IMG/VR virus record: IMGVR_UViG_3300023174_000102
Location: 1 to 64,000 of that record
Length of the DNA: 64,000 nucleotides
Source: a virus
Direction: 5' to 3' (one strand)
Positions 2,592-14,434 of the stretch are shown here, one piece after another. Made by a program: the position numbers and the translations under genes. Each line of letters starts with the position of its first letter. Position 1 is the first letter of the stretch. The notes beneath the pieces were generated by a model that saw only the letters and a list, made by a program, of their open reading frames with translations, searched no databases and was not told the origin of the DNA.

Positions 2592-3434
2592 ATGGCAGTA
2601 AGACAACAGCAAAGAAGAGGCACTGCAGCGCAGTGGACATCTGCAAATCCAATTTTGTCACCAGGTGAAATCGGTTTTGAAATTGATACAAACAAATTTA
2701 AGATTGGTGATGGAACAACTCGTTGGGCATCCCTAATATACTTTACAGCAGACGCAGCAGCAGCACTTGAAGATTTAATCGATGGTGCTCCAGGTCTTCT
2801 AGATACACTCAATGAACTTGCAGCAGCCGTTGGCGACGATGCAAACTTTTTCTCTACAGTAACAACAAATATTGCAACTGCTAAGTCAGAGGCAATCTCA
2901 ACAGCAGCATCAGATGCTACTACAAAGGCTAATACTGCTAAGTCAGAAGCAATCTCAACTGCTGCAGCAGATGCTACTACAAAGGCTAACAATGCTAAGT
3001 CTGGAGCAGAAACAACAGCAGCAAATGCTCTTGCTTCACACGAATCAGATACAACAAACATTCACGGCATTGCAGACACTTCACTTCTAGCAACTACAGC
3101 AAATGTAGCAACTGCTAAATCAGAAGCAATATCAACAGCAGGAACAGCAGCAGATACAAAGGTGTCAAATGCAGTAGCAGCACTAACAAAGTCTTCTGTT
3201 GGTCTTGGAAATGTTGACAATACTTCAGATGCAAACAAGCCTGTTTCAACAGCAACACAAACAGCCCTTGATTTAAAAGCACCACTAGCATCTCCAGGAC
3301 TTACTGGAAATCCAACGGCACCAACACAAGCAGTTGGTAATGACTCAACAAGAATTGCTACAACAGCATTTGTTAAGGCAGCAATACAAGACATTGCATC
3401 ACTTAACTTAGTTCTTGATGGCGGTGGCGTATAA
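2592..3434 (+). CDS. Tail fibre protein with Mtd_N/hyaluronidase-N-like anchor domain
   Basis: QQRRGTAAQWTSANPILSPGEIGFEIDTNKFKIGDG N-terminus; VGLGNVDNTSDANKPVS and SPGLTGNPTAPT...IATTAFV fibre motifs. Confidence 0.8.
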   Translation: MAVRQQQRRGTAAQWTSANPILSPGEIGFEIDTNKFKIGDGTTRWASLIYFTADAAAALEDLIDGAPGLLDTLNELAAAVGDDANFFSTVTTNIATAKSEAISTAASDATTKANTAKSEAISTAAADATTKANNAKSGAETTAANALASHESDTTNIHGIADTSLLATTANVATAKSEAISTAGTAADTKVSNAVAALTKSSVGLGNVDNTSDANKPVSTATQTALDLKAPLASPGLTGNPTAPTQAVGNDSTRIATTAFVKAAIQDIASLNLVLDGGGV

Positions 3435-3495
3435 AATGTTAAATTTTAATACAAAAATAGAAATGTACGCAAACCGTACAAGGGGGAGAAAATAA

Positions 3496-6084
3496 ATGAC
3501 AACAAGAATGCAACAGCGCAGAGGAACTGCAGCCCAATGGACGGCTGCAAACCCAATTCTGGCATCAGGTGAAATCGGTTTTGAAACCGACACAAACAAG
3601 TTTAAGATGGGCAATGGATCGTCAACATGGACTACCCTAGAATATTATTCTAATGCAGCAGAACTTCGCAGTGCAATTAATAATCTTATAGATGCTGCTC
3701 CAGGAACACTAGATACACTTAAGGAACTAGCAGAATCTATTGGAAATGATGCAGACTTTGCTGCAACCGTAGCAACACACACATCTGCAACTACAAATGT
3801 TCATGGAATTGCAGACACATCACTACTCGCAACAATATCAGGAGTTACTTCAGCAATTTCTGAGTCACGTTCTGTTTCAGCAGCAGATGCAACTTCAAAA
3901 GCAAATGGAGCAGTCGCAGCAGCAGCCATAGATGCTACTTCAAAGGCTAACGCTGCAGCAAGCGCAGCAGCAACAGCACTCTCAAACCATGAGGCAGATA
4001 CAACAAATATTCATGGCATTGCAGATACTTCACTTCTAGCAACTAAGAATTATGCTGATGGAGCAGTATCTGATCATAACGCAGACGAGACAAATGTTCA
4101 TGGTATTGCAAATACAGCATCACTTGCAACAAAGGATTATACAGATACAGCAATTACAACTGCAACATCACAACTTACAAAGTCAGCAGTAGGACTAGAT
4201 CAGGTAAATAATACTTCTGATGCAAACAAGCCAGTTTCAACTGCACAAGCAACAGCAATTTCAACTGCAGTTTCTGATCATAATCTTGATGAGACAAATG
4301 TTCACGGTATTGCAGACACCGCAGAACTTGTAACACAGACACAACTTACAAACGCTATTTCAGGTGCAACTGTAGATCAGGCAGCACTTGCAGGAAACGG
4401 TCTTGTATGGGATGCAGCAAACTCAGAGTATGATCTTGATAATACATATATCACAACTGCTACTCAGACAGCACTTGACTTGAAGGCACCTCTTGCAAAT
4501 CCAACTTTTACAGGAACAGTTTCTGGTGTTACAAAGACACATGTTGGCCTTGCAAATGTTGATAATACTTCAGATGCCAATAAGCCAGTTTCAACTGCTG
4601 CACAAACAGCACTTAACTTAAAGGCTAATCTTGCTGGTCCAACATTTACAGGAACTGTAACTCTTCCTGCAAATACAATTACAAATACAATGATGGCTGA
4701 TGACTCTGTAGATACTGCAGAAATTAAAAATTCAGCAGTTACAAATGCTAAATTAGCAGGGTCAATTGATTGGACAAAACTCTCAGTATCTTCAACAGTT
4801 TCAGAAACAGAACTTGGGTATGTTGATGGCGTAACTTCAGCAATTCAGACACAGTTAGATGCTAAGTTGCCAAAGTCTGGTGGAACAATGACTGGAGCGC
4901 TTACACTTTCAGGTGCACCAACATCAGATCTTCATGCAGCAACTAAGGCTTATGTTGACGGAATTTCTGCAGGAATTAATTTCCACCAATCAGTAGTTGC
5001 AGCAACATCAGGTAATTTGGTTGGTGTTTATGACAATGGCACAAATGGATATGGAGCAACAATCACAGCATCAGCAAATGGTTCTATTGGAACAATTGAT
5101 GGTGCAACAGTTTCTGTTGGATCTAGAATATTACTTCGTGCACAAACAGATGCAACACAAAACGGTATTTATACAGTCACTAACGTAGGTGGATCATCAG
5201 CAAAGTGGGTTGTAACTCGTGCAGCAGATGCAGATAATAATCCAGCAGGCGAACTTGCAACTGGTGACTTCTGTTTTGTAACTGGTGGAAATACATATCC
5301 TAATACAGGATTTATTTTGTCAACATCAGGAACAATTACAATTGGTACAACCAACGTTAACTATACTCAGTTTAACGCAGCACAAGCAATTGTTGCTGGC
5401 TCAGGTTTGACAAAGACTGGCTCAACACTATCTATTGAGTCTGGCGCAATTACATCATCAATGATTCTTGATGGAACAATTGTTGATGCAGATATTAATT
5501 CAAGTGCAGCAATTGCTAAGACAAAGATTTTTGGAACAGCAATTACAGCAGCAGATTCAGGTACAGTTACATCAGCAATGATCGCTGACGGAACAATTGT
5601 AGATGGTGATATTAATGCTTCAGCAGCAATTGCACAATCAAAGATTTTTGGACTTACTTCAGATCTTGCTGCTAAGGCTCCTCTAGCATCACCTACATTT
5701 ACTGGCACAGTAACTGTTTCATCTTCAGGTATTGCATTTACAGATGGTACACAGACAAAAGAAGGTGTTGTATCACGTACACCAATTGTACAAAAGACAG
5801 CATCTTATACACTTTCAGCACTTACAGAAAGAGACTCACTAATTGAAATCTCTTCTGCATCAGCAGTAACTCTTACAATACCAACAAATGCAACACTTGC
5901 TCTTCCAGTAGGAACTTCTATTGATATCCTACAAACTGGAGCGGGGCAGATTACAGTTGCAGGAGCAGCAGGAGTAACAGTTAATGCAACACCAGGTTTA
6001 AAGTTACGCACACAGTGGTCTGGAGCAACTCTTTTCAAGAGAGCAACAGATACCTGGGTAGTATACGGCGACTTGTCAGCATAA
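3496..6084 (+). CDS. Long tail fibre protein with Mtd_N-like anchor domain
   Basis: Same N-terminal domain as 2592; repeated TTNVHGIADT and VDNTSDANKPVS modules; RILLRAQTDATQNGIY motif; C-terminal beta domain. Confidence 0.8.
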   Translation: MTTRMQQRRGTAAQWTAANPILASGEIGFETDTNKFKMGNGSSTWTTLEYYSNAAELRSAINNLIDAAPGTLDTLKELAESIGNDADFAATVATHTSATTNVHGIADTSLLATISGVTSAISESRSVSAADATSKANGAVAAAAIDATSKANAAASAAATALSNHEADTTNIHGIADTSLLATKNYADGAVSDHNADETNVHGIANTASLATKDYTDTAITTATSQLTKSAVGLDQVNNTSDANKPVSTAQATAISTAVSDHNLDETNVHGIADTAELVTQTQLTNAISGATVDQAALAGNGLVWDAANSEYDLDNTYITTATQTALDLKAPLANPTFTGTVSGVTKTHVGLANVDNTSDANKPVSTAAQTALNLKANLAGPTFTGTVTLPANTITNTMMADDSVDTAEIKNSAVTNAKLAGSIDWTKLSVSSTVSETELGYVDGVTSAIQTQLDAKLPKSGGTMTGALTLSGAPTSDLHAATKAYVDGISAGINFHQSVVAATSGNLVGVYDNGTNGYGATITASANGSIGTIDGATVSVGSRILLRAQTDATQNGIYTVTNVGGSSAKWVVTRAADADNNPAGELATGDFCFVTGGNTYPNTGFILSTSGTITIGTTNVNYTQFNAAQAIVAGSGLTKTGSTLSIESGAITSSMILDGTIVDADINSSAAIAKTKIFGTAITAADSGTVTSAMIADGTIVDGDINASAAIAQSKIFGLTSDLAAKAPLASPTFTGTVTVSSSGIAFTDGTQTKEGVVSRTPIVQKTASYTLSALTERDSLIEISSASAVTLTIPTNATLALPVGTSIDILQTGAGQITVAGAAGVTVNATPGLKLRTQWSGATLFKRATDTWVVYGDLSA

Positions 6085-6112
6085 ATTTAAGTAGAAAAAA
6101 GGAGATATACCA

Positions 6113-7723
6113 ATGGCAGTTAATAAGAATATAGGTGGAAGATCACAGTCAGCAAATGACTTCCTTGCACCGTATGCACCAACAATTGGGACAGCAACAG
6201 ATGTTGGAACAGGTCGAGCATATAATAATGGAGCAGCAACAGTAACATTTACTGGAACTGGTCCAAATGCAGCGACCTCCTATACAGTTTATGCTGTTGA
6301 AGATAATACAAAAACTGCCACTGGTGTATCATCTCCTTTGACTGTAACTGGTCTTGCATCAGGAACAAACTATACATTTAAGGTATATGGAACAAATACT
6401 CAAGGAGGCAGAGGTTCTGATTCATCAGCATCTAACCAAATAACAGCAACAACAGTTCCTCAAACACCAACACTTGGAGCAGTAACAAATACTTGTTCTG
6501 GTCGTGGATTTGGTGATGGCTTAATTACTGTTGCTATGACAGCAAACGGTACTGGTGGAAAAGCAATTTCATCATACTATGCAATTTCAAATGCTGGACA
6601 AAATGGATCAGGTGCATCTTCTACAGTAAATGTTACTGGATTGTCAGGAGGAACATCATATACATTCCAGGGCCGTGTTTCAAATGCAAATGGTAACTCT
6701 GACTTAACAGCATCATCAGGTGCAGTTGCTGCAACAACAGTACCTGCAGCACCAGGGGCTCCATCAGCATCATCACCATCATATGGAGTTGACTCTGTTT
6801 CATGGTCAGCACCATCAAATGGTGGTTCTGGAATTACAAATTACCGCTGGACATCTTCTGATGGAAAGGCTGGAGATACTGGATCAACATCAGTATCAGT
6901 AAGTCAGGAAGTAGGAACAGCACAGACATACAGTGTTTATGCAACAAATGCTTGTGGTAACTCTGCAACATCTGCTCCATCAGGAACTGTCACAACTACT
7001 TTCGGTGCATTCGGTGCATTCGGTGCTTTTGGTGCATTCGGTGCCTTCTCCGCATTCGGTGCATTCGGTGCATTCGGTGCCTTCTCCGCATTCGGTGCAT
7101 TCGGTGCATTCGGTGCCTTCTCCGCATTCGGTGCTTTTGGTGCATTCGGTGCCTTTGGTGCCTTTGGTGCCTTTGGTGCTTTCGGTGCTTACGGTGGTGG
7201 TAGCCGTATTTACTCAGTTGGTCCAGAGACCCTAATCCTAACTACAAATGGATATGTAATGGCAGCAGATCTTGAAATAGGTGACACTCTTATTTCAGCA
7301 GATGTTCCTGGATTAGGTATGTCATTTACAACAGATGAAATGAAAGCCTGGAGAAATAGTCCAGACAATTTAGAAATTGTTCCAGATAAAACAACAACAA
7401 TCAAGGCTATTGGATTATCAAATGCAACAGTTTCTGTGATGATAGATAATGAAACATACTCAGGAACTCACCATTTACTTGCAAAAAGAGATGGTGTGGC
7501 TCAGATGATTTTATCTGCAAACCTATTGACTACAGACAAGTTGTGGTCTACAAAGACAAACTCTTGGATCGATATAGTTGACTTGGTTATAACAGAGATT
7601 AGTCATCAGGTTGTTTCAATCAACTGTGAGCCACTAGATATGTTCTTTACAGAAAACTTCCTAGTCTATGATGGCTATCAGATAGATTACCCATTACCTA
7701 GCATAGATCCTACACTAGAATAA
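6113..7723 (+). CDS. FN3-repeat protein with (F-G/S-A)21 array and C-terminal Hint domain
   Basis: Three FN3-like units (LTVTGLASGTNYTFKVYGTN; VTGLSGGTSYTFQGRVSN; VSWSAPSNGGSGITNY); tripeptide array; Hint motifs SVGPETLILTTNG..AADLEIGD, SGTHHLL, VVSINCEPLDMFFTENFLVYD. Confidence 0.8.
   Translation: MAVNKNIGGRSQSANDFLAPYAPTIGTATDVGTGRAYNNGAATVTFTGTGPNAATSYTVYAVEDNTKTATGVSSPLTVTGLASGTNYTFKVYGTNTQGGRGSDSSASNQITATTVPQTPTLGAVTNTCSGRGFGDGLITVAMTANGTGGKAISSYYAISNAGQNGSGASSTVNVTGLSGGTSYTFQGRVSNANGNSDLTASSGAVAATTVPAAPGAPSASSPSYGVDSVSWSAPSNGGSGITNYRWTSSDGKAGDTGSTSVSVSQEVGTAQTYSVYATNACGNSATSAPSGTVTTTFGAFGAFGAFGAFGAFSAFGAFGAFGAFSAFGAFGAFGAFSAFGAFGAFGAFGAFGAFGAFGAYGGGSRIYSVGPETLILTTNGYVMAADLEIGDTLISADVPGLGMSFTTDEMKAWRNSPDNLEIVPDKTTTIKAIGLSNATVSVMIDNETYSGTHHLLAKRDGVAQMILSANLLTTDKLWSTKTNSWIDIVDLVITEISHQVVSINCEPLDMFFTENFLVYDGYQIDYPLPSIDPTLE
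7001..7189 (+). repeat. 9-nt tandem repeat x21 (TTY GGT GCH, three TTC TCC GCA variants) with 36-nt higher-order period
   Basis: Encodes FGAx5-FSA-FGAx3-FSA-FGAx3-FSA-FGAx7; TTCTCCGCA at 7046, 7082, 7118. Confidence 0.97.
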
Positions 7724-7837: not shown

Positions 7838-8560
7838 ATGGAAATAATGAATACTATTAAATTTCTTCAGATGTATCCTCAGTTGCTAAGCATTGTTCCA
7901 GAGCCAGAGCAGGGAACAAAGAATATTCCTACATGGTATAAAGAGCAGCCAGCAATTTCAGGAAACGATGTTCCTGATAGAGGAATTATGAGGCTCACTG
8001 TAAAAAAATGTCAAGCCTTCTTTGATGCTATGGCAATGGGGTATATTCTAAAAGTTCCATGTGATATATATATAGATACAACTGAGGGAAACTTAAATAT
8101 TCAACTCCCTGCTGGAATGAATAAATATTATTCCATGCTTATAAGTGAACATTCGGCAGAGCAGGTTTCTCACTTGCCTATAGATAAAGACATTTACTGT
8201 AATAAAATTTTAAGAATTCATCCTACATGGATGGTTCAGACTAATGCTGGATATAGTACATTTTTTACAAATCCAATCCATCAGAGTCCATCTCCATTAA
8301 AGGCAATTGATGCTGTTGTTGATACTGATAACTATTTTACAGACGGGCATCTATCATTCTTGGTAAAAAAGAATTTTAAAGGAACAATAAAGCAAGGAAC
8401 GCCAATGTCTCAAGTTTTTCCATTTAAAAGAGAAGAATGGGAAATGGAACTAGATAAAAACTTTCCAGAAAAGAAAATAGAAGAACAAAGAAACAAAGTA
8501 AGGTCTACTTTTCAAAACGGATATAGATTAAAGTTTTGGCAAAAGAAAACCTTTAAGTAA
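7838..8560 (+). CDS. Uncharacterised phage accessory protein (TVKKCxxFxDAM family; possibly DUF6065/dUTPase-like beta fold)
   Basis: Motifs TVKKCQAFFDAMAMGYIL, GYSTFFTNP, VVDTDNY, GTIKQGTPMSQVFPFKRE; family assignment from memory. Confidence 0.5.
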   Translation: MEIMNTIKFLQMYPQLLSIVPEPEQGTKNIPTWYKEQPAISGNDVPDRGIMRLTVKKCQAFFDAMAMGYILKVPCDIYIDTTEGNLNIQLPAGMNKYYSMLISEHSAEQVSHLPIDKDIYCNKILRIHPTWMVQTNAGYSTFFTNPIHQSPSPLKAIDAVVDTDNYFTDGHLSFLVKKNFKGTIKQGTPMSQVFPFKREEWEMELDKNFPEKKIEEQRNKVRSTFQNGYRLKFWQKKTFK

Positions 8561-8649: not shown

Positions 8650-10683
8650 ATGTCAGATTTTTTTAGTTTTAGACTTCCAGAGGATTTTGTAGGAAAGTAC
8701 AAAAATCAAGAGAGCCCATTTGGATTTAAAGATGCAGCAGAAAACTCACTTGGAGAAATTACTTTTATTCGTACATATTCTCGTATGAAGGAAGATGGAA
8801 CTAAAGAGCGTTGGCATGAGGTATGCCGTCGTGTAATCGAGGGTATGTATTCAGTACAAAAGAATCATGCTAAAGAAAATCGTTTGCCATGGAACGATTA
8901 CAAGGCTCAAAAATCAGCACAAGAAGCATTTCAAAGAATGTTTGAGTTGAAGTGGACTCCACCAGGACGAGGTATGTGGGCATTCGGAACTCCTATGACT
9001 ATGGAGAAGAAGAACTCAGCAGCATTACAAAACTGTGCAATGGTTTCTACAAAGGACCTTGACAAGAATGATCCAGGAGCATTATTTGCTTGGGTCATGG
9101 ATGCACTTATGCTTGGCATTGGTGTAGGGTTTGATACAGTAGGACAGGATAAGAATTTTTTAATCTATGCCCCAACAGAACCAGAACAGGTGTTCGAAAT
9201 TCCAGACACTCGTGAAGGATGGGTAGAGTCAGTCAGACTTCTAATAAACTCATACCTTAGAGCAAACCAGAGTATTCAAAAGTTTAACTACGATTTGATT
9301 AGACCTCTTGGTGCACCTATTAAGGGCTTTGGAGGGGTTGCTTCAGGGCCTGAACCTCTTATTAAGTTGCACGACCAGATAGACCGTGTAATCGGCTCCA
9401 GAGGCGGAGAAACGCTAGACTCTCGTGCCATCGTAGACCTTGTAAACCTTATTGGTACCTGCGTGGTATCAGGTAATGTTCGCAGATCAGCAACACTGGC
9501 TTTGGGTACTGCAGGAGATGACACATTCATGAATCTAAAGAATTCAGAAATGTTCCCAGAACGCAATTCATTTGATCCAGATAATCCAGGTTGGGCTTGG
9601 ATGTCTAATAATTCTATTTCAGCAGAAGTGGGAACAAAGTACGAAGACTATGTAGATTTAATTACAGAAAACGGAGAACCAGGTTTTATCTGGCTTGATG
9701 TTGCTCGTAATTATGGACGACTAAAGGATGCGCCAGACGGTAAGGATTATCGTGTGATGGGATTTAACCCATGTGCGGAGCAGCCATTGGAATCATACGA
9801 ATTATGTACACTTGTAGAAGTGCACTTGAATCGTCATGAATCTAAGGAGGACTTCCTGCGTACCCTGAAGTTTGCATACCTTTATGGAAAGACTGTAACG
9901 CTTGTTCCAACACACTGGCCACAAACAAACGGTATCATGCAACGCAACCGTCGTATTGGTACATCACTAACAGGTATTGCGTCATTTGCAGATCAAAAGG
10001 GTTTGCCAATTGTTCGTGAGTGGATGGACGAAGGATACAACAAGATCCGTCACTATGACCACCAGTATTCAGAATGGCTTTGTGTTCGTGAATCAATTCG
10101 TGTAACAACAGTTAAGCCATCAGGGTCAGTTTCAATTCTTTCTGGTGCAACTCCTGGAGTTCACTGGGGTCCTGGAGGAAACTTCTTCCTTCGTGCAGTT
10201 AGATTTGGAAACACAGATCCAATGATGCACTTGTTTAAAGCAGCAGGGTACACAATTGAAGATGACGTAGTATCAGCAAATACATCAGTAGTTTACTTCC
10301 CAATCAAGTCAGGTCATCCAAGATCTGAAAAGGATGTAACCTTGTTTGAAAAGATTGCACTTGCTGCAACTGCTCAAAAGTATTGGTCTGATAACGGTGT
10401 TTCTGTAACGCTTTCTTTTGACAAGGAAACAGAATCAAAGCATGTTGTTCCAGCACTTCATATGTACGAAGGACAACTAAAGGCAGTATCATTCCTTCCA
10501 ATGGGAAATACAGTTTATCCACAACAGCCATATACTCAGATTACTGAAGAAGAATATGATTCTTATATTGGCAAGTTGAAGCACATTGATTTTTCTGCTA
10601 TTTATGATGGAGCAGAAAATCTTGAGGCTCAAGGAGAGATGTACTGCACTACAGATTACTGTGAAATCAAAATAAACAAGTAG
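8650..10683 (+). CDS. nrdJ: Class II adenosylcobalamin-dependent ribonucleotide reductase, monomeric RTPR type
   Basis: PPGRG, ALQNC, VSGNVRRSA, GFNPCAEQ (radical Cys), TTVKPSGS, C-terminal CTTDYC redox pair; no beta-subunit gene nearby. Confidence 0.93.
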   Translation: MSDFFSFRLPEDFVGKYKNQESPFGFKDAAENSLGEITFIRTYSRMKEDGTKERWHEVCRRVIEGMYSVQKNHAKENRLPWNDYKAQKSAQEAFQRMFELKWTPPGRGMWAFGTPMTMEKKNSAALQNCAMVSTKDLDKNDPGALFAWVMDALMLGIGVGFDTVGQDKNFLIYAPTEPEQVFEIPDTREGWVESVRLLINSYLRANQSIQKFNYDLIRPLGAPIKGFGGVASGPEPLIKLHDQIDRVIGSRGGETLDSRAIVDLVNLIGTCVVSGNVRRSATLALGTAGDDTFMNLKNSEMFPERNSFDPDNPGWAWMSNNSISAEVGTKYEDYVDLITENGEPGFIWLDVARNYGRLKDAPDGKDYRVMGFNPCAEQPLESYELCTLVEVHLNRHESKEDFLRTLKFAYLYGKTVTLVPTHWPQTNGIMQRNRRIGTSLTGIASFADQKGLPIVREWMDEGYNKIRHYDHQYSEWLCVRESIRVTTVKPSGSVSILSGATPGVHWGPGGNFFLRAVRFGNTDPMMHLFKAAGYTIEDDVVSANTSVVYFPIKSGHPRSEKDVTLFEKIALAATAQKYWSDNGVSVTLSFDKETESKHVVPALHMYEGQLKAVSFLPMGNTVYPQQPYTQITEEEYDSYIGKLKHIDFSAIYDGAENLEAQGEMYCTTDYCEIKINK

Positions 10684-10708: not shown

Positions 10709-13700
10709 ATGTCTAATCCATCCAACCTATATGCAGAAAAAGTCTTTGCTGAGCATCCGACTGGCTTATGGGCATTGGATGATAAAGCAGACTATATTTC
10801 TTTAATTTCAGAACCACAAAGAATTTTATCAGATCCAACAAAATGGGATATAACTGGAGGAACTGCTTCGGCATATCCTAACTCAGTTGATGAACCGTTT
10901 ATTCAAAGTTATGTTGGAAGAATTGTTGCAATCCCAACATCAAATGATTCATCTTCAATTATTGCTATTAGCAAAGATATAATGAATTTAAAAGATTTTA
11001 ATAAATACCTAAAAACTTTTTCTGTTGGCGGATACTTTTATTCTGAAAGCGCATATATTGTAGGCTTTGAAATTGGATATCAGTATACAGACACAACAAG
11101 TGGACAGGATATAACTCATTTAAAAAATTACGATACCGTAATAAATAATAATTGGATTTTTATATCAGAGACATTTGATACACCACCAGATGAGACTGGA
11201 ATTAGGCTAGTATTTAAGATTAATTTTGTTGGTGGGTCAGAAACAGAAGATGCATTCTTGGTAAATGGAATAAGCCTTGGACAGTGGTCAGAAGAGTTTG
11301 CTTCAACATCTCTTGGAGTTGAGCCAATAGATATTCCTTCTGACATATCAATTGCACCACAAAAAGGAATAGTGTCAAAGTGTTATGGTCTACAGCAACT
11401 AGATGGATATTACTTAGTTGCCGATAATATGCTTAAGGCAAAAAATTCAGGAATCCCAATTGTTTATGGAACTTCAGGTTTGACAACAATGTATCCAAAT
11501 GGAGACAATCCTTCTTTAATAGTTCCAGGAGTTGGTTTATTAAATGAGTCTGGAAAGTTTAAGCAATATACCCTTGAAACTTGGCTAAGAATAAACTCAT
11601 ATAGCAATGATAGAAAAAGAATAATTGGACCAATCGCATCTGATGATGGCATATATGTTGATGGGCCTTCTATTGGACTAAAAATAGGAAATGAATATTC
11701 TACTTATTATGTTGGTGAATGGACAAGGCCAATGTTAGTTCACATGAGAGTTGGCAAAGATGTAGCATCCCTTGTTATTAATGGTCAAGAGGTTATTTCT
11801 TTAACTTATTTAACAGAAGATCTTGTTCTTCCAACTATGCTAGATGAAAATGATAAAGATCAAGATTGGATAGGTTTTTATGCACACGAGGATATATATC
11901 CAATAGAATTTGACTGTGTTGGAATTTATCCTTATATTGTCGCATCTGCTGTTGCAAAAAGAAGGTTTGTTTTTGGGCAGGGTGTTGAAATTCCAGAAAA
12001 TATAAATACATCGTATAGTGGTACATCTGTTTTTATTGATTATTCTTTTGCAGACTATACATCAAACTATTCATATCCAAAAACTGGATCATGGAATCAA
12101 GGTTTTAAAGATAATATTTCCATATCAAGTAAATCTCTTTCTGTTTTATCTCATCCTCTTCCAGAAATAGTTCTATCATCAAAAACAAAAGAAGAACTTT
12201 TTGCAGATTGTAAAGCAGTTCAGTCATCAGATACCAATAAGTTCTTTTCGTTTAGACCAAACTCATCTTGGAATTCTATTTCTGGTTATTTATTCTTTAA
12301 AAACTTTGACTCAATAAAAACTCCTGTTTCTGCATTCTATGGATCTTTTAGATTGCCACAATCATCAACTTCTATGCAAACACTTTTTAGAATTGAAAAA
12401 GAAAATACAAGCAATTACTTTTTAATACAACTTATCAATAATCAAATATCTTATGTTATAAATTACAACGGAATTACAGAAACGCTATATTCTCCATTAG
12501 TGGCAGAGCCAGGAGAGTTAGTTGACATAGGAGTTAATATTCCAGCATTTATTTCTAGGTTTGGAAATCCAGCATCAGATTTCTTTGGTTCTTTGTCAGA
12601 TCTAAGAATGTATGTTGGAGGAGATAAAACTGGATCTTCTACCTTTACTGGCAAGATATACAGAGTGGGTTTATGTTCAAACTATAATTTTCAAAAAATT
12701 AGATTTTTGTTTAATGAGATAGGTGTTCCAATCTGGAATGAAGATCTCTTTGCAGTTTATCAAAATAATCAATTAATAAATGTAGACGGAGGAGTAGATA
12801 CAACATCCATGCCACCATCAGGAGGAATAACTGATACTGCTAATGGAGCACTGTCTGGTGGCGGTGTATTAATTACTGACGAAGATAGTCTCCTTGACCA
12901 TGTTGCAACATATACATTAATTCCACAAACAATATTTGATACATACAAGTTGGCAGTATCTGCAAGCGCATACTGGGAAGATAATCTTCCCCTAACATAT
13001 TTTGCTGAATCTGTTCTTGATAAAAGAGGTGATCAGTACTTTGATCTTGATTTTATTCAATTTAATATTGATTATCCAATACCGTCAAAAACAATTGCAA
13101 TAGATACAGATCCAGAAGATTGGACATATGCAGATTTAGCAAATGAGTATGGAGTTCCAGTTCAAAGAAGTTATACATCTCTGGATAACTACTTGTTTAC
13201 TGGATATAATGATTATGAAGATTTAAAAAATAAAGTTGCAAAAGACTATAGATATGATACTGACGGTGCTGCAGTAAAAAGTTATGTAACATTTCAATAT
13301 ACAGAACTAGGAGCAAATCAGACATACTTTTATTTTACAAAAATTGAAAGACCTTCTAGAGATGGAATACTTATACCTGGGTCAGACTGGATGACAACAA
13401 AGTATGAAGTTGTAGATAATATGATTATTTATCCACCAGCAGGCGTAGATTTTAATGACCTATCTATTGTTACACATATAGAGATGAATGTTAAAGACTC
13501 AGAAAAAAACAATATTTCAATTAAAAAACTTTCGTATGCATCTCAAGCACTTAACGAATCTGATGCAAGCCCAATAGGAACAAGGTTTGGAACTTCTATA
13601 TATCCTTATACTAAGACTGGAATATATTACAATTTTAAAAGAAAAAATCCATTTTCAATTTATAATGGATCTTCCCCTTATTTATATCTAACAAAAACAA

Positions 13701-14434
13701 GCGGAATACAGTTGCGTGGAAAGTATGATCCACTTATCAATAGAGGTCTTTTGATTCCTGTAAATACAAGTAGAGCAGAAGGATTTAAGGTTATAGCAAT
13801 GCAAATGGCTTTAAGATTTGATGGAGAATACTTCCCTTACGCTCCAACACAGATTTTTGAAATGCAAAGCAAGGACTCTTACATAAAGTTTTATATGGTT
13901 GCAAATGATCCTAGTGGCAAGAGAGCAAAAATTTATGCTATAGATGCAAAGACGGGTCTTGTTCAAAATGGAATTGGTTTTTACTGGAATGGAAAAATTG
14001 TAAAAGAGCCAGTCATTACCCTGCAAGAGTGGGGATTCCTTGGAATTAACTTTGCAGATAGACTAAACTTTTCGTTTTTTGAAGGAGCGCTAAGACTAAC
14101 TGGTCCACTACTATTTAACAGCATATCCTATTATCAATCTACAAATCTACAAGAAGTACAGAATACATCAGAAAGGCCGTGGTTTAGAGTCAAGGTGCTT
14201 GGTTCTTATGGACTTGACTGGAAATTCTGGAACACTGGATCTTTTAATTGGAACAAGGTTCTTGTCCTATCGGAAACAAGTTACTATGGTGTCAATCCAT
14301 CAGATGTTTACAAGAGTTATACTGGTACTAATAAGATTATTGTAGACGATGATAGACCTGTTGTGTTAGGGCAATACGCATATACGCTATTTACTAACGT
14401 AAACTGGAAACAGTTTGTCCAAGACCCTGTTTAA
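10709..14434 (+). CDS. Large virion structural/minor tail protein with LamG/concanavalin-like segments
   Basis: Starts YAEKVFAEHPTGLWALDD; YTLETWLRI and SLVINGQEV LamG-like motifs; lies just before the portal. Confidence 0.55.
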   Translation: MSNPSNLYAEKVFAEHPTGLWALDDKADYISLISEPQRILSDPTKWDITGGTASAYPNSVDEPFIQSYVGRIVAIPTSNDSSSIIAISKDIMNLKDFNKYLKTFSVGGYFYSESAYIVGFEIGYQYTDTTSGQDITHLKNYDTVINNNWIFISETFDTPPDETGIRLVFKINFVGGSETEDAFLVNGISLGQWSEEFASTSLGVEPIDIPSDISIAPQKGIVSKCYGLQQLDGYYLVADNMLKAKNSGIPIVYGTSGLTTMYPNGDNPSLIVPGVGLLNESGKFKQYTLETWLRINSYSNDRKRIIGPIASDDGIYVDGPSIGLKIGNEYSTYYVGEWTRPMLVHMRVGKDVASLVINGQEVISLTYLTEDLVLPTMLDENDKDQDWIGFYAHEDIYPIEFDCVGIYPYIVASAVAKRRFVFGQGVEIPENINTSYSGTSVFIDYSFADYTSNYSYPKTGSWNQGFKDNISISSKSLSVLSHPLPEIVLSSKTKEELFADCKAVQSSDTNKFFSFRPNSSWNSISGYLFFKNFDSIKTPVSAFYGSFRLPQSSTSMQTLFRIEKENTSNYFLIQLINNQISYVINYNGITETLYSPLVAEPGELVDIGVNIPAFISRFGNPASDFFGSLSDLRMYVGGDKTGSSTFTGKIYRVGLCSNYNFQKIRFLFNEIGVPIWNEDLFAVYQNNQLINVDGGVDTTSMPPSGGITDTANGALSGGGVLITDEDSLLDHVATYTLIPQTIFDTYKLAVSASAYWEDNLPLTYFAESVLDKRGDQYFDLDFIQFNIDYPIPSKTIAIDTDPEDWTYADLANEYGVPVQRSYTSLDNYLFTGYNDYEDLKNKVAKDYRYDTDGAAVKSYVTFQYTELGANQTYFYFTKIERPSRDGILIPGSDWMTTKYEVVDNMIIYPPAGVDFNDLSIVTHIEMNVKDSEKNNISIKKLSYASQALNESDASPIGTRFGTSIYPYTKTGIYYNFKRKNPFSIYNGSSPYLYLTKTSGIQLRGKYDPLINRGLLIPVNTSRAEGFKVIAMQMALRFDGEYFPYAPTQIFEMQSKDSYIKFYMVANDPSGKRAKIYAIDAKTGLVQNGIGFYWNGKIVKEPVITLQEWGFLGINFADRLNFSFFEGALRLTGPLLFNSISYYQSTNLQEVQNTSERPWFRVKVLGSYGLDWKFWNTGSFNWNKVLVLSETSYYGVNPSDVYKSYTGTNKIIVDDDRPVVLGQYAYTLFTNVNWKQFVQDPV

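Follow-up and report, generated by a model that had tools for sequence, protein, structure and literature searches.

A Hint domain behind an aromatic repeat at the end of a fibre-cluster protein of uncultured phages, and its predicted self-removal

Hint domains have been described in inteins, in Hedgehog, in bacterial intein-like (BIL) domains and in polymorphic toxins. We have followed up a further case, encoded in a window of 64,000 nt that comprises the first 64 kb of the 98-kb IMG/VR virus record IMGVR_UViG_3300023174_000102 (estimated completeness 89%): an open reading frame (ORF) whose 536-amino-acid (aa) product carries three FN3-like domains, a repeat of 21 F-[G/S]-A units and a C-terminal Hint domain. 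Several described systems are close to it. BIL domains have been divided into A- and B-types (Amitai et al. 2003 and Dassa et al. 2004, to the extent that the review PMC7765530 presents them), and A-type BIL domains self-cleave (PMC7765530). The Clostridium thermocellum BIL domain 2lwy has been reported to ligate without the help of a nucleophilic side chain (Aranko et al. 2013, as relayed in PMC4031507). In Hedgehog the Hint ester is passed to cholesterol (PMC7765530), and in Tetrahymena BIL2 the N-extein is passed to a lysine with formation of an isopeptide bond (PMC8616854). For inteins it is established what residue 1, Thr B:7 and His B:10 do in the first acyl shift, and in natural inteins a terminal Asp or Gln is able to cyclise (PMC4031507). 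The Peptidase_S74 domain, a further point of comparison, is an intramolecular chaperone that detaches itself from fibre and spike proteins rich in low-complexity sequence (PMC7824862).

An earlier note, made from the letters of this DNA, had delimited the ORF, its three FN3 domains, the 21 F-G/S-A units, the YGGGSRIY linker, the stretch 7214-7672 and a 16-aa tail. All of these coordinates proved correct, and the Ser at Hint residue 1, the Tyr-Asp end and block B (S450-G-T-H453) are as it had read them. The parts of the gene on which the argument turns are listed here with the evidence for each.

6113-7723, + strand: whole ORF, 536 aa, comprising FN3x3, (FGA)21 repeat, Hint and short tail (translation and AlphaFold2)
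6173-6442, + strand: FN3-like domain 1, about residues 21-110 (best Pfam fn3 stretch 41-104; AlphaFold2 strands with confidence score >90)
6455-6727, + strand: FN3-like domain 2, about residues 115-205 (Pfam fn3, AlphaFold2)
6746-7000, + strand: FN3/PKD-like domain 3, about residues 212-296 (weak PKD_6 match, AlphaFold2)
7001-7189, + strand: 21 F-[G/S]-A units (Tandem Repeats Finder, translation)
7190-7213, + strand: linker YGGGSRIY, ending in Y367, which stands at -1 of the predicted cleavage site (translation, relatives)
7214-7672, + strand: Hint domain, 153 aa, S368-D520 (AlphaFold2, Foldseek, profile matches)
7214-7216, + strand: Ser368, Hint residue 1, predicted nucleophile for an N-to-O acyl shift (alignment)
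7460-7471, + strand: block B, S450-G-T-H453, equivalent of the intein TxxH (alignment)
7610-7672, + strand: blocks F and G, VVSINCEPLDMFFTENFLVYD (alignment, profile)
7673-7720, + strand: 16-aa tail GYQIDYPLPSIDPTLE, with Gly at +1 (translation)

The 176-aa C-terminal piece gave no useful direct match in Pfam, PHROG or PDB sequences, and none of the Pfam Hint models matched the window protein at E<=1; F1L matches to the Hint part at E of about 0.5 were dismissed as noise. An exhaustive phmmer search with the same piece retrieved 104 representative clusters, 77 of which were taken into an alignment. Modelled by AlphaFold2 with these 77 relatives, the C-terminal part reached a mean confidence score (predicted local distance difference test, pLDDT) of 92.4 and a predicted template modelling score of 0.86. 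Foldseek returned 50 PDB matches at E<=0.001, and all of the listed matches are Hint domains, headed by the C. thermocellum BIL domain 2lwy (E 4.9e-7) and followed by Tetrahymena BIL2 (6y75), the Ssp DnaB intein (1mi8), the gp41-1 intein and Hedgehog (6tyy, 1at0). The family profile likewise matches the gp41-1 intein (2.6e-7) and BIL 2lwy (6.3e-7), in a register that places the S368 region at the intein N-terminus and D520 (codon 7670-7672) at the intein terminal Asn. Individual relatives are also matched by Pfam models, namely Intein_splicing (15), PT-HINT (7), Hom_end_hint (5), Hint_2 (3 of the 77) and Vint (1). In a full-length AlphaFold model of the 536-aa protein, built from 26 sequences, the folded domain covers residues 368-522 at pLDDT of about 90 and the tail (521-536) falls to about 40; the GYQ at the start of this tail is kept in the closest relatives and the remainder is variable. 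The Hint fold suspected in the earlier note is borne out by these models, which predict the 153 aa from S368 to D520 to be a true Hint fold.

The positions that would carry out Hint chemistry are strongly conserved. Of the 64 representatives whose sequence includes residue 1, 53 have Ser there and 11 have Cys; the first position of block B is always S or T, and the block-B His is present in 75/77 aligned members, with H453 invariant in the A3 alignment. E506 and D509 are nearly invariant, Asp509 occupying the block-F site where inteins usually have His; Y519 stands at the penultimate-His site and D520 at the terminal-Asn site. These catalytic residues are retained down to about 25% identity, and all 79 classified IMG/VR loci combine Ser1 with a terminal [H/Y/F]-Asp. 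The residue 1 and C-terminal states go together: 9/11 Cys1 members end in His-Asn, and among the 52 Ser1 members with a covered C-terminus 44 end in [H/F/Y/L]-Asp and none in His-Asn. The Cys1/His-Asn members, which share the FN3-repeat architecture, have only 1-4 residues after the Hint domain. In a maximum-likelihood tree with midpoint root they form a basal grade, all Ser1 members fall into one clade (support 99/93), and the lineages left unresolved at the base of this clade include Ser1 forms ending in Tyr-Asn or Trp-Asn. Repeated independent co-variation of Ser1 with terminal Asp was rejected, as the tree shows one Cys-to-Ser change. The Ser/Asp state thus appears, from the tree, to be a single inherited change that was then kept across very deep divergence.

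On either side of the domain the window protein departs from the commonest state. Ser is the most frequent +1 residue (25 of the 71 representatives among the 77 aligned whose Hint ends in Asp or Asn, and 49 of the 79 classified loci); here it is Gly, which lacks a side-chain nucleophile. At -1 Lys is usual (52/79 loci), and the window protein has Tyr (Y367). Its end, Y519-D520, compares with the penultimate His and terminal Asn of class 1 inteins, in which Gln or Asp is tolerated at the last position. The window protein differs from class 1 inteins in the Gly at +1, in having only the 16-aa tail of low pLDDT where a functional C-extein would follow, and in a host protein that is variable and modular, whereas class 1 inteins are inserted at conserved sites of conserved proteins. 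The premise of the earlier note, that Hint domains without the terminal Asn generally do not splice, is too strong if it is taken to rule out C-terminal chemistry, given that Asp or Gln can cyclise (PMC4031507).

The most informative comparison concerned what follows the repeat in homologous proteins. A search with residues 1-300 retrieved 1161 proteins at E<=1e-10, of which 115 new ones were listed and sorted by their C-termini: 77 carry Hint, about 25 clusters end right after the aromatic repeat, and 3 carry Peptidase_S74. Hint-less examples include P0130 (382 aa, on a 118-kb contig) and P0154 (on a 99-kb contig), and such proteins end in ...FTAAF, ...FSAAY or ...FSAWT. In P0208, P0219 and P0222 the Peptidase_S74 domain stands directly after the repeat, at ...SRYS-SDERIK, and scores 41-49 bits against a cut-off of 22. 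The Hint domain thus takes the place of a known self-removing module, and FN3-repeat chains with a free C-terminus occur in nature.

From the observed fold, residues, family architecture and genomic context we infer, with moderate confidence, that a BIL-like Hint domain removes itself at Y367|S368 by hydrolysis and leaves FN3x3-(FGA)21. The protein would be an accessory of the tail-fibre cluster of an uncultured siphovirus-like phage, built from FN3 surface domains, a flexible aromatic repeat and the Hint domain, and the Hint domain would act once, on its own chain. Ser368 would attack the Y367-S368 bond in an N-to-O acyl shift, aided by the Ser450/His453 pair of block B, and the resulting ester would be resolved, most likely by water. 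Two products are predicted: FN3x3-(FGA)21-YGGGSRIY, with about 367 aa, and a fragment of about 19 kDa that contains the Hint domain. Of the indirect evidence, what speaks most strongly for cleavage at Y367|S368, with hydrolysis as the default outcome, is that homologues carry S74 or end at this point; the same observation upholds the proposal, already made in the earlier note, that FN3x3-(FGA)n is the likely mature product. Cleavage is also supported by the basal relatives, whose Cys1 and His-Asn resemble those of the self-cleaving A-type BIL domains. With Gly at +1 and a short tail of low confidence, the protein is not expected to splice.

The likeness to BIL domains extends beyond the best fold matches, 2lwy and 6y75. 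In both cases the Hint domain sits in variable surface-type proteins and not in conserved enzyme sites, there is no endonuclease, and the basal family members have the Cys1 and terminal His-Asn of the A-type. BIL domains do not require a +1 nucleophile and self-cleave at one or both ends. The phage family differs in being viral, in placing the domain at the extreme C-terminus and in nearly always having it behind an aromatic or Pro-rich low-complexity repeat; moreover, the clade of the window protein has Ser1 and terminal [H/Y/F]-Asp, and the window protein itself ends in YD and not in the A-type His-Asn and matches no Pfam Hint model, such as Hint_2 for the B-type. With Hedgehog it shares a C-terminal Hint domain that would free an N-terminal extracellular module through a residue-1 acyl shift, the lack of a terminal His-Asn, and the fold matches 6tyy and 1at0. 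Residue 1 is Ser and not Cys, however, the junction reads RIY|SVG with no Gly-Cys-Phe motif, and in place of the sterol-recognition region of about 60-70 aa there is only the 16-aa tail, with no evidence of an acceptor. Contrary to the earlier label of a Hedgehog-like step, the domain is nearer to BIL domains: these give the best fold matches, the sterol region is missing and the basal members are Cys1/His-Asn. Peptidase_S74 (PF13884) is likewise a C-terminal module of fibre-type phage proteins, cuts itself at a Ser and takes the same position in homologues; its fold is unrelated, it uses a Ser-Lys dyad, and it trimerises and nucleates fibre folding. PF13884 itself gave no match in the window protein (Pfam).

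Several points weigh against the self-removal that we favour. Tyr and Asp replace the penultimate His and the terminal Asn, and with Asp509 in block F this makes for an atypical active site. Ser esters form less readily than thioesters, and cleavage could be slow or dependent on a trigger. The conserved residues might serve folding and not catalysis, and, as Ser1 arose once in the tree, its conservation does not represent many independent events. That GYQ is conserved after D520, and that other clades often have Ser at +1, hints at some chemistry at the C-terminal junction as well. The self-cleavage of the Hint domain is also itself a step that we infer.

We regard as unlikely, yet worth setting out, a transfer of the Hedgehog or BUBL kind, in which the Ser368 ester is taken by a virion protein, through a Lys or its N-terminal amine, or by an amine of the host cell wall, so that the FN3-repeat chain becomes tethered by its C-terminus. 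Hedgehog (cholesterol) and Tetrahymena BIL2 (lysine) provide the precedents, and the latter, a BIL domain that passes its N-extein to lysine, is the second-best fold match (6y75; PMC8616854). BIL2 differs in being flanked by ubiquitin-like domains, in having Cys1 and a terminal Asn and in being regulated by zinc, and the phage protein shows no sign of an acceptor. PASTA domains, which are peptidoglycan-binding, occur in 18/77 relatives, and a Ser where Cys is usual would be suited to oxidising conditions outside the cell. By our own analogy, the adhesin-type domains, the Pro/aromatic spacer and an activating module resemble sortase substrates. The more specific idea that the repeat-Hint unit is an enzyme-free anchor, in which the Ser368 ester goes to an amine of a virion protein or the cell wall and the FN3 or PASTA domains are covalently tethered, as by sortase but without a sortase, is more doubtful still. 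Against transfer, there is no sterol-recognition or other acceptor-binding region, only the 16-aa tail at pLDDT of about 40, and the natural Hint-less and S74 forms imply that a plain free C-terminus is functional. The DUF6065 gene downstream is also present in haloarchaeal viruses, and the cultured-phage collection that includes them gave no match to three family queries. The suggestion in the earlier note of ligation to a lipid, glycan or virion protein finds no direct support here. Should the ester nevertheless be transferred and not hydrolysed, it would represent a novel mode of covalent attachment for viruses.

It is also unlikely, in our estimate, that the Hint domain is inactive and stays at the distal end of the appendage, as a knob with a structural or binding function. 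The lack of a canonical His-Asn and the replacement of the block-F His by Asp would fit such a role, as would the better conservation of Hint (about 79-85% identity in close relatives) than of the FN3 part (72-74%), which is what a folded functional domain would show. An inert knob would leave it unexplained that Ser/Cys1 and the block-B His are kept across deep divergence, that the domain starts exactly at the nucleophile, right after a disordered repeat, and that it alternates in position with a known self-cleaving domain or with nothing.

Ligation or splicing of the BIL type seems distinctly improbable for the window protein. In this case D520 would cyclise and the freed tail would be joined to Y367, giving FN3x3-(FGA)21-...RIY-GYQIDYPLPSIDPTLE, either through the new alpha-amine of the tail or, in clades with Ser at +1, through classical transesterification. 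A terminal Asp can stand in for Asn in cyclisation (PMC4031507), and the best fold match, 2lwy, is the domain for which side-chain-free ligation is described in the account cited above. The conservation of GYQ at +1 to +3 in the closest relatives, the prevalence of Ser at +1 in the family and a few members with tails of 35-55 aa or longer behind His-Asp-Ser point the same way. However, the +1 residue here is Gly, the tail is modelled with low confidence, tails vary in sequence and from 1 to 44 aa (1-4 residues in the Cys1/His-Asn members), and the Hint-less forms simply end after the repeat.

Least probable by far is a decayed mobile intein, or a pretoxin Hint domain that has lost its C-extein or toxin: some relatives match Pfam Intein_splicing and PT-HINT, but a homing endonuclease is lacking, the host protein, far from being conserved, is hypervariable, the same C-terminal architecture recurs in hundreds of viral loci with intact catalytic residues, and no toxin domain follows the Hint, whereas PT-HINT domains precede toxins (PMC3482391). 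PT-HINT is similar in that the Hint peptidase follows a filamentous stalk or one made of repeats, tail-fibre-like ones among them (PMC3482391), and 7 relatives match PF07591; the difference is that PT-HINT frees a C-terminal toxin domain, and in the window protein only a short tail follows the Hint.

A literature search combining Hint or BIL domains with phage, virion or tail fibre found only ordinary inteins of terminases and polymerases, polymorphic-toxin Hints and reviews; we came across no publication that describes Hint as a module regularly ending the fibre-cluster proteins of phages. Neither the fold nor the chemistry is new. The novelty lies in the viral C-terminal setting behind low-complexity repeats, in the exchange with S74 and in the Ser1/terminal-Asp clade. 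That Hint alternates with the unrelated S74 domain points to two independent answers to a single requirement of phage appendage assembly, in which a low-complexity C-terminus prone to aggregation is delivered and its helper is then discarded. The Ser1/terminal-Asp clade comprises compact, cysteine-free natural Hint variants, which could interest protein engineers if they are active.

The family was marked by the motif I[ND][CT]EPxDxF[FW], which identified 235 confirmed loci in IMG/VR. A motif scan of 185,579 prokaryote species (one genome each) gave two matches, both on contigs of about 10 kb from metagenome-assembled genomes, which may be mis-binned phage DNA; a first scan of cellular genome contigs had found no relative. 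Searches by tblastn with the whole protein, the Hint part and the distant member P0104 gave no match among 50,697 cultured-phage records. The best structural matches in BFVD are proteins of uncultured Caudovirales, automatically named 'PASTA_pknB domain containing protein', 'Fibronectin type III' and 'Hint domain containing protein', and the ESM Atlas neighbours are also viral clusters. The Hint family thus appears to be almost purely viral and known only from uncultured sequence.

In nearly all 104 clusters the Hint match forms the extreme C-terminus of the protein, whose length ranges from 150 to 1100 aa. It is nearly always preceded immediately by a low-complexity repeat with much Phe, Tyr, Pro or Gly, of the types FGA, FGFSP, FGFTP, FFPP, NYG, PPYYN, GPPxGPP or VTP. 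The domains before the repeat vary: fn3 is found in 21/77 and PASTA in 18/77, and PKD, TIG, He_PIG and CBM96 also occur. A third class of N-terminus, with tandem 'Y[VI]KV.G.W+.V'-like units, was seen in P0024, P0026, P0027, P0033, P0047, P0061, P0092 and P0103; Pfam gave no match on the members scanned (in P0061 and P0092 only fn3 elsewhere), P0103 having been scanned in the pooled run only. Tails after the Hint range from 1 to 44 aa across the aligned family and are widely variable in sequence. As a side observation, P0081, P0105 and the ORFs of L142, L150, L156 and L166 continue for 35-130 aa beyond His-Asp-Ser (e.g. ...HDSQPLDLN...LEELYQQWK...). Having an internal Hint and a Ser at +1, they would be the members best placed to undergo true splicing or to release a C-terminal peptide.

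The one Pfam family found in the window protein is fn3, in three stretches (E 3.9e-11), and the full-length AlphaFold model shows three beta-sandwich domains at pLDDT >90 (residues about 21-110, 115-205 and 212-296). The third has a weak PKD_6 match at residues 239-287 (E 0.00054), with model strands at residues 218-279. Tandem Repeats Finder describes the array as a 9-nt unit at 7001-7196 in 21.8 copies, and residues 300-365 have a pLDDT of about 30 and are predicted to be disordered in the monomer. Close relatives have 22-24 FGA units, compared with 21 here and 13 or 7 in forms fused to a fibre (described below). A collagen-like triple helix was rejected as a family trait, as relatives use units of 5 or 6 residues (FGFSP, FFPP, NYG); Ser stands at 3/21 Gly positions of the array and so interrupts the Gly-X-Y periodicity, and Pfam Collagen scores E 0.077 on the window protein, missing its cut-off. 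The junction with the Hint reads GGG[SPT]R..[YTF]|SVGP in most close relatives and GGGPTPT|SVGP in the fibre-fusion forms L029 and L030.

The immediate surroundings of the gene contain the following features.

2592-6084, + strand: two tail-fibre genes, 2592-3434 and 3496-6084 (Mtd_N and tail-fibre PHROGs)
6099-6104, + strand: ribosome-binding site AAGGAG, 8 nt 5' of the ATG (sequence reading)
6113-6172, + strand: basic N-terminal peptide of about 20 aa with the motif S-Q-S-A-N-D-F-L-x-P (comparison of family N-termini)
7838-8560, + strand: DUF6065/phrog_7084 gene (1.4e-39), directly 3' of the Hint gene
8650-10683, + strand: class II (B12-dependent) ribonucleotide reductase
10709-14434, + strand: 1241-aa ORF between the ribonucleotide reductase and the portal-side genes

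The Hint gene starts 28 nt past the stop codon (6082-6084) of the 862-aa tail-fibre gene. No terminator-like or promoter-like site was found on the + strand between the two, and the Hint gene is probably co-transcribed with both upstream fibre genes, which match Mtd_N (1.4e-13 and 5.7e-15) and many tail-fibre PHROGs. The N-terminal peptide, whose S-Q-S-A-N-D-F-L-x-P motif is shared by many family members, is not a Sec signal peptide, because it has no hydrophobic core; residues 1-11 have low pLDDT in the full-length model. PASTA-type members begin instead with strongly basic peptides (MRRKTGRVGRRK...).

Related contigs keep the order of fibre genes, Hint gene, DUF6065, class II ribonucleotide reductase, 1241-aa ORF and portal. 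The reductase is 98% identical in related contigs, and the fibre and Hint genes only about 40-75%. We counted neighbours for 72 distinct FN3-part homologues in IMG/VR loci. A fibre-like gene lies <=400 nt upstream in 44/48 Hint forms and 15/16 forms without Hint, and more distant members, including Asn-terminated Hints and the PASTA-bearing L011, also stand behind fibre genes.

DUF6065 follows within 1.5 kb downstream in 31/48 Hint forms versus 2/16 forms without Hint, an association that is confounded by lineage. Its gene is 90-93% identical in related contigs, versus 72-74% for the Hint gene, and it is also found behind the distant Hint genes of L012, L014 and L015. It has homologues in about 50 phage records, most of them of haloarchaeal tailed viruses (such as HF2 and HRTV, with identities of about 30%), and in bacteria too. 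A role for DUF6065 as an obligatory tailoring partner is unsupported, as none of the three Hint-family queries matched its roughly 50 phage records. The reductase is closest to those of Actinomycetia phage DSL-LC01 (62%) and mycobacteriophage Gaia (61%); this affinity, together with the PASTA domains in relatives, hints at a possible actinobacterial host. In DSL-LC01 no synteny was seen in the 21-kb stretch inspected, and no match to the Hint protein. The 1241-aa ORF has no Pfam or PHROG match and is 79-84% conserved in related contigs and 44% in L008.

In three loci fibre and Hint are fused into a single protein of 865-900 aa (L029:2862-5510, L031:2817-5519 and L084:2898-5495) that consists of a fibre distal domain, (VTP)n stretches, an aromatic repeat (FGA in L029 and L031) and Hint. 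The distal domain is 35% identical to residues 764-860 of the window fibre (E 3e-14), and that of L084 also matches the minor tail protein phrog_8780. As observed in passing, the fusion forms contain very long (V/A)TP repeats broken by Cys-rich modules of about 30 aa (e.g. CN.DW/N...C..CGLVW.P.FGEC), which have no PHROG match and sit between the fibre distal domain and the repeat-Hint unit. Some phages have two Hint-terminated genes (contigs 3300034066_000840, 3300043468_000329 and 3300002835_000068; loci L142, L150, L156, L166 and L180). The Hints of L022 and L029, on the same contig, are 82.7% identical, and because their N-terminal parts differ (FN3x3 versus fibre distal domain), this suggests that the repeat-Hint unit may move as a cassette.

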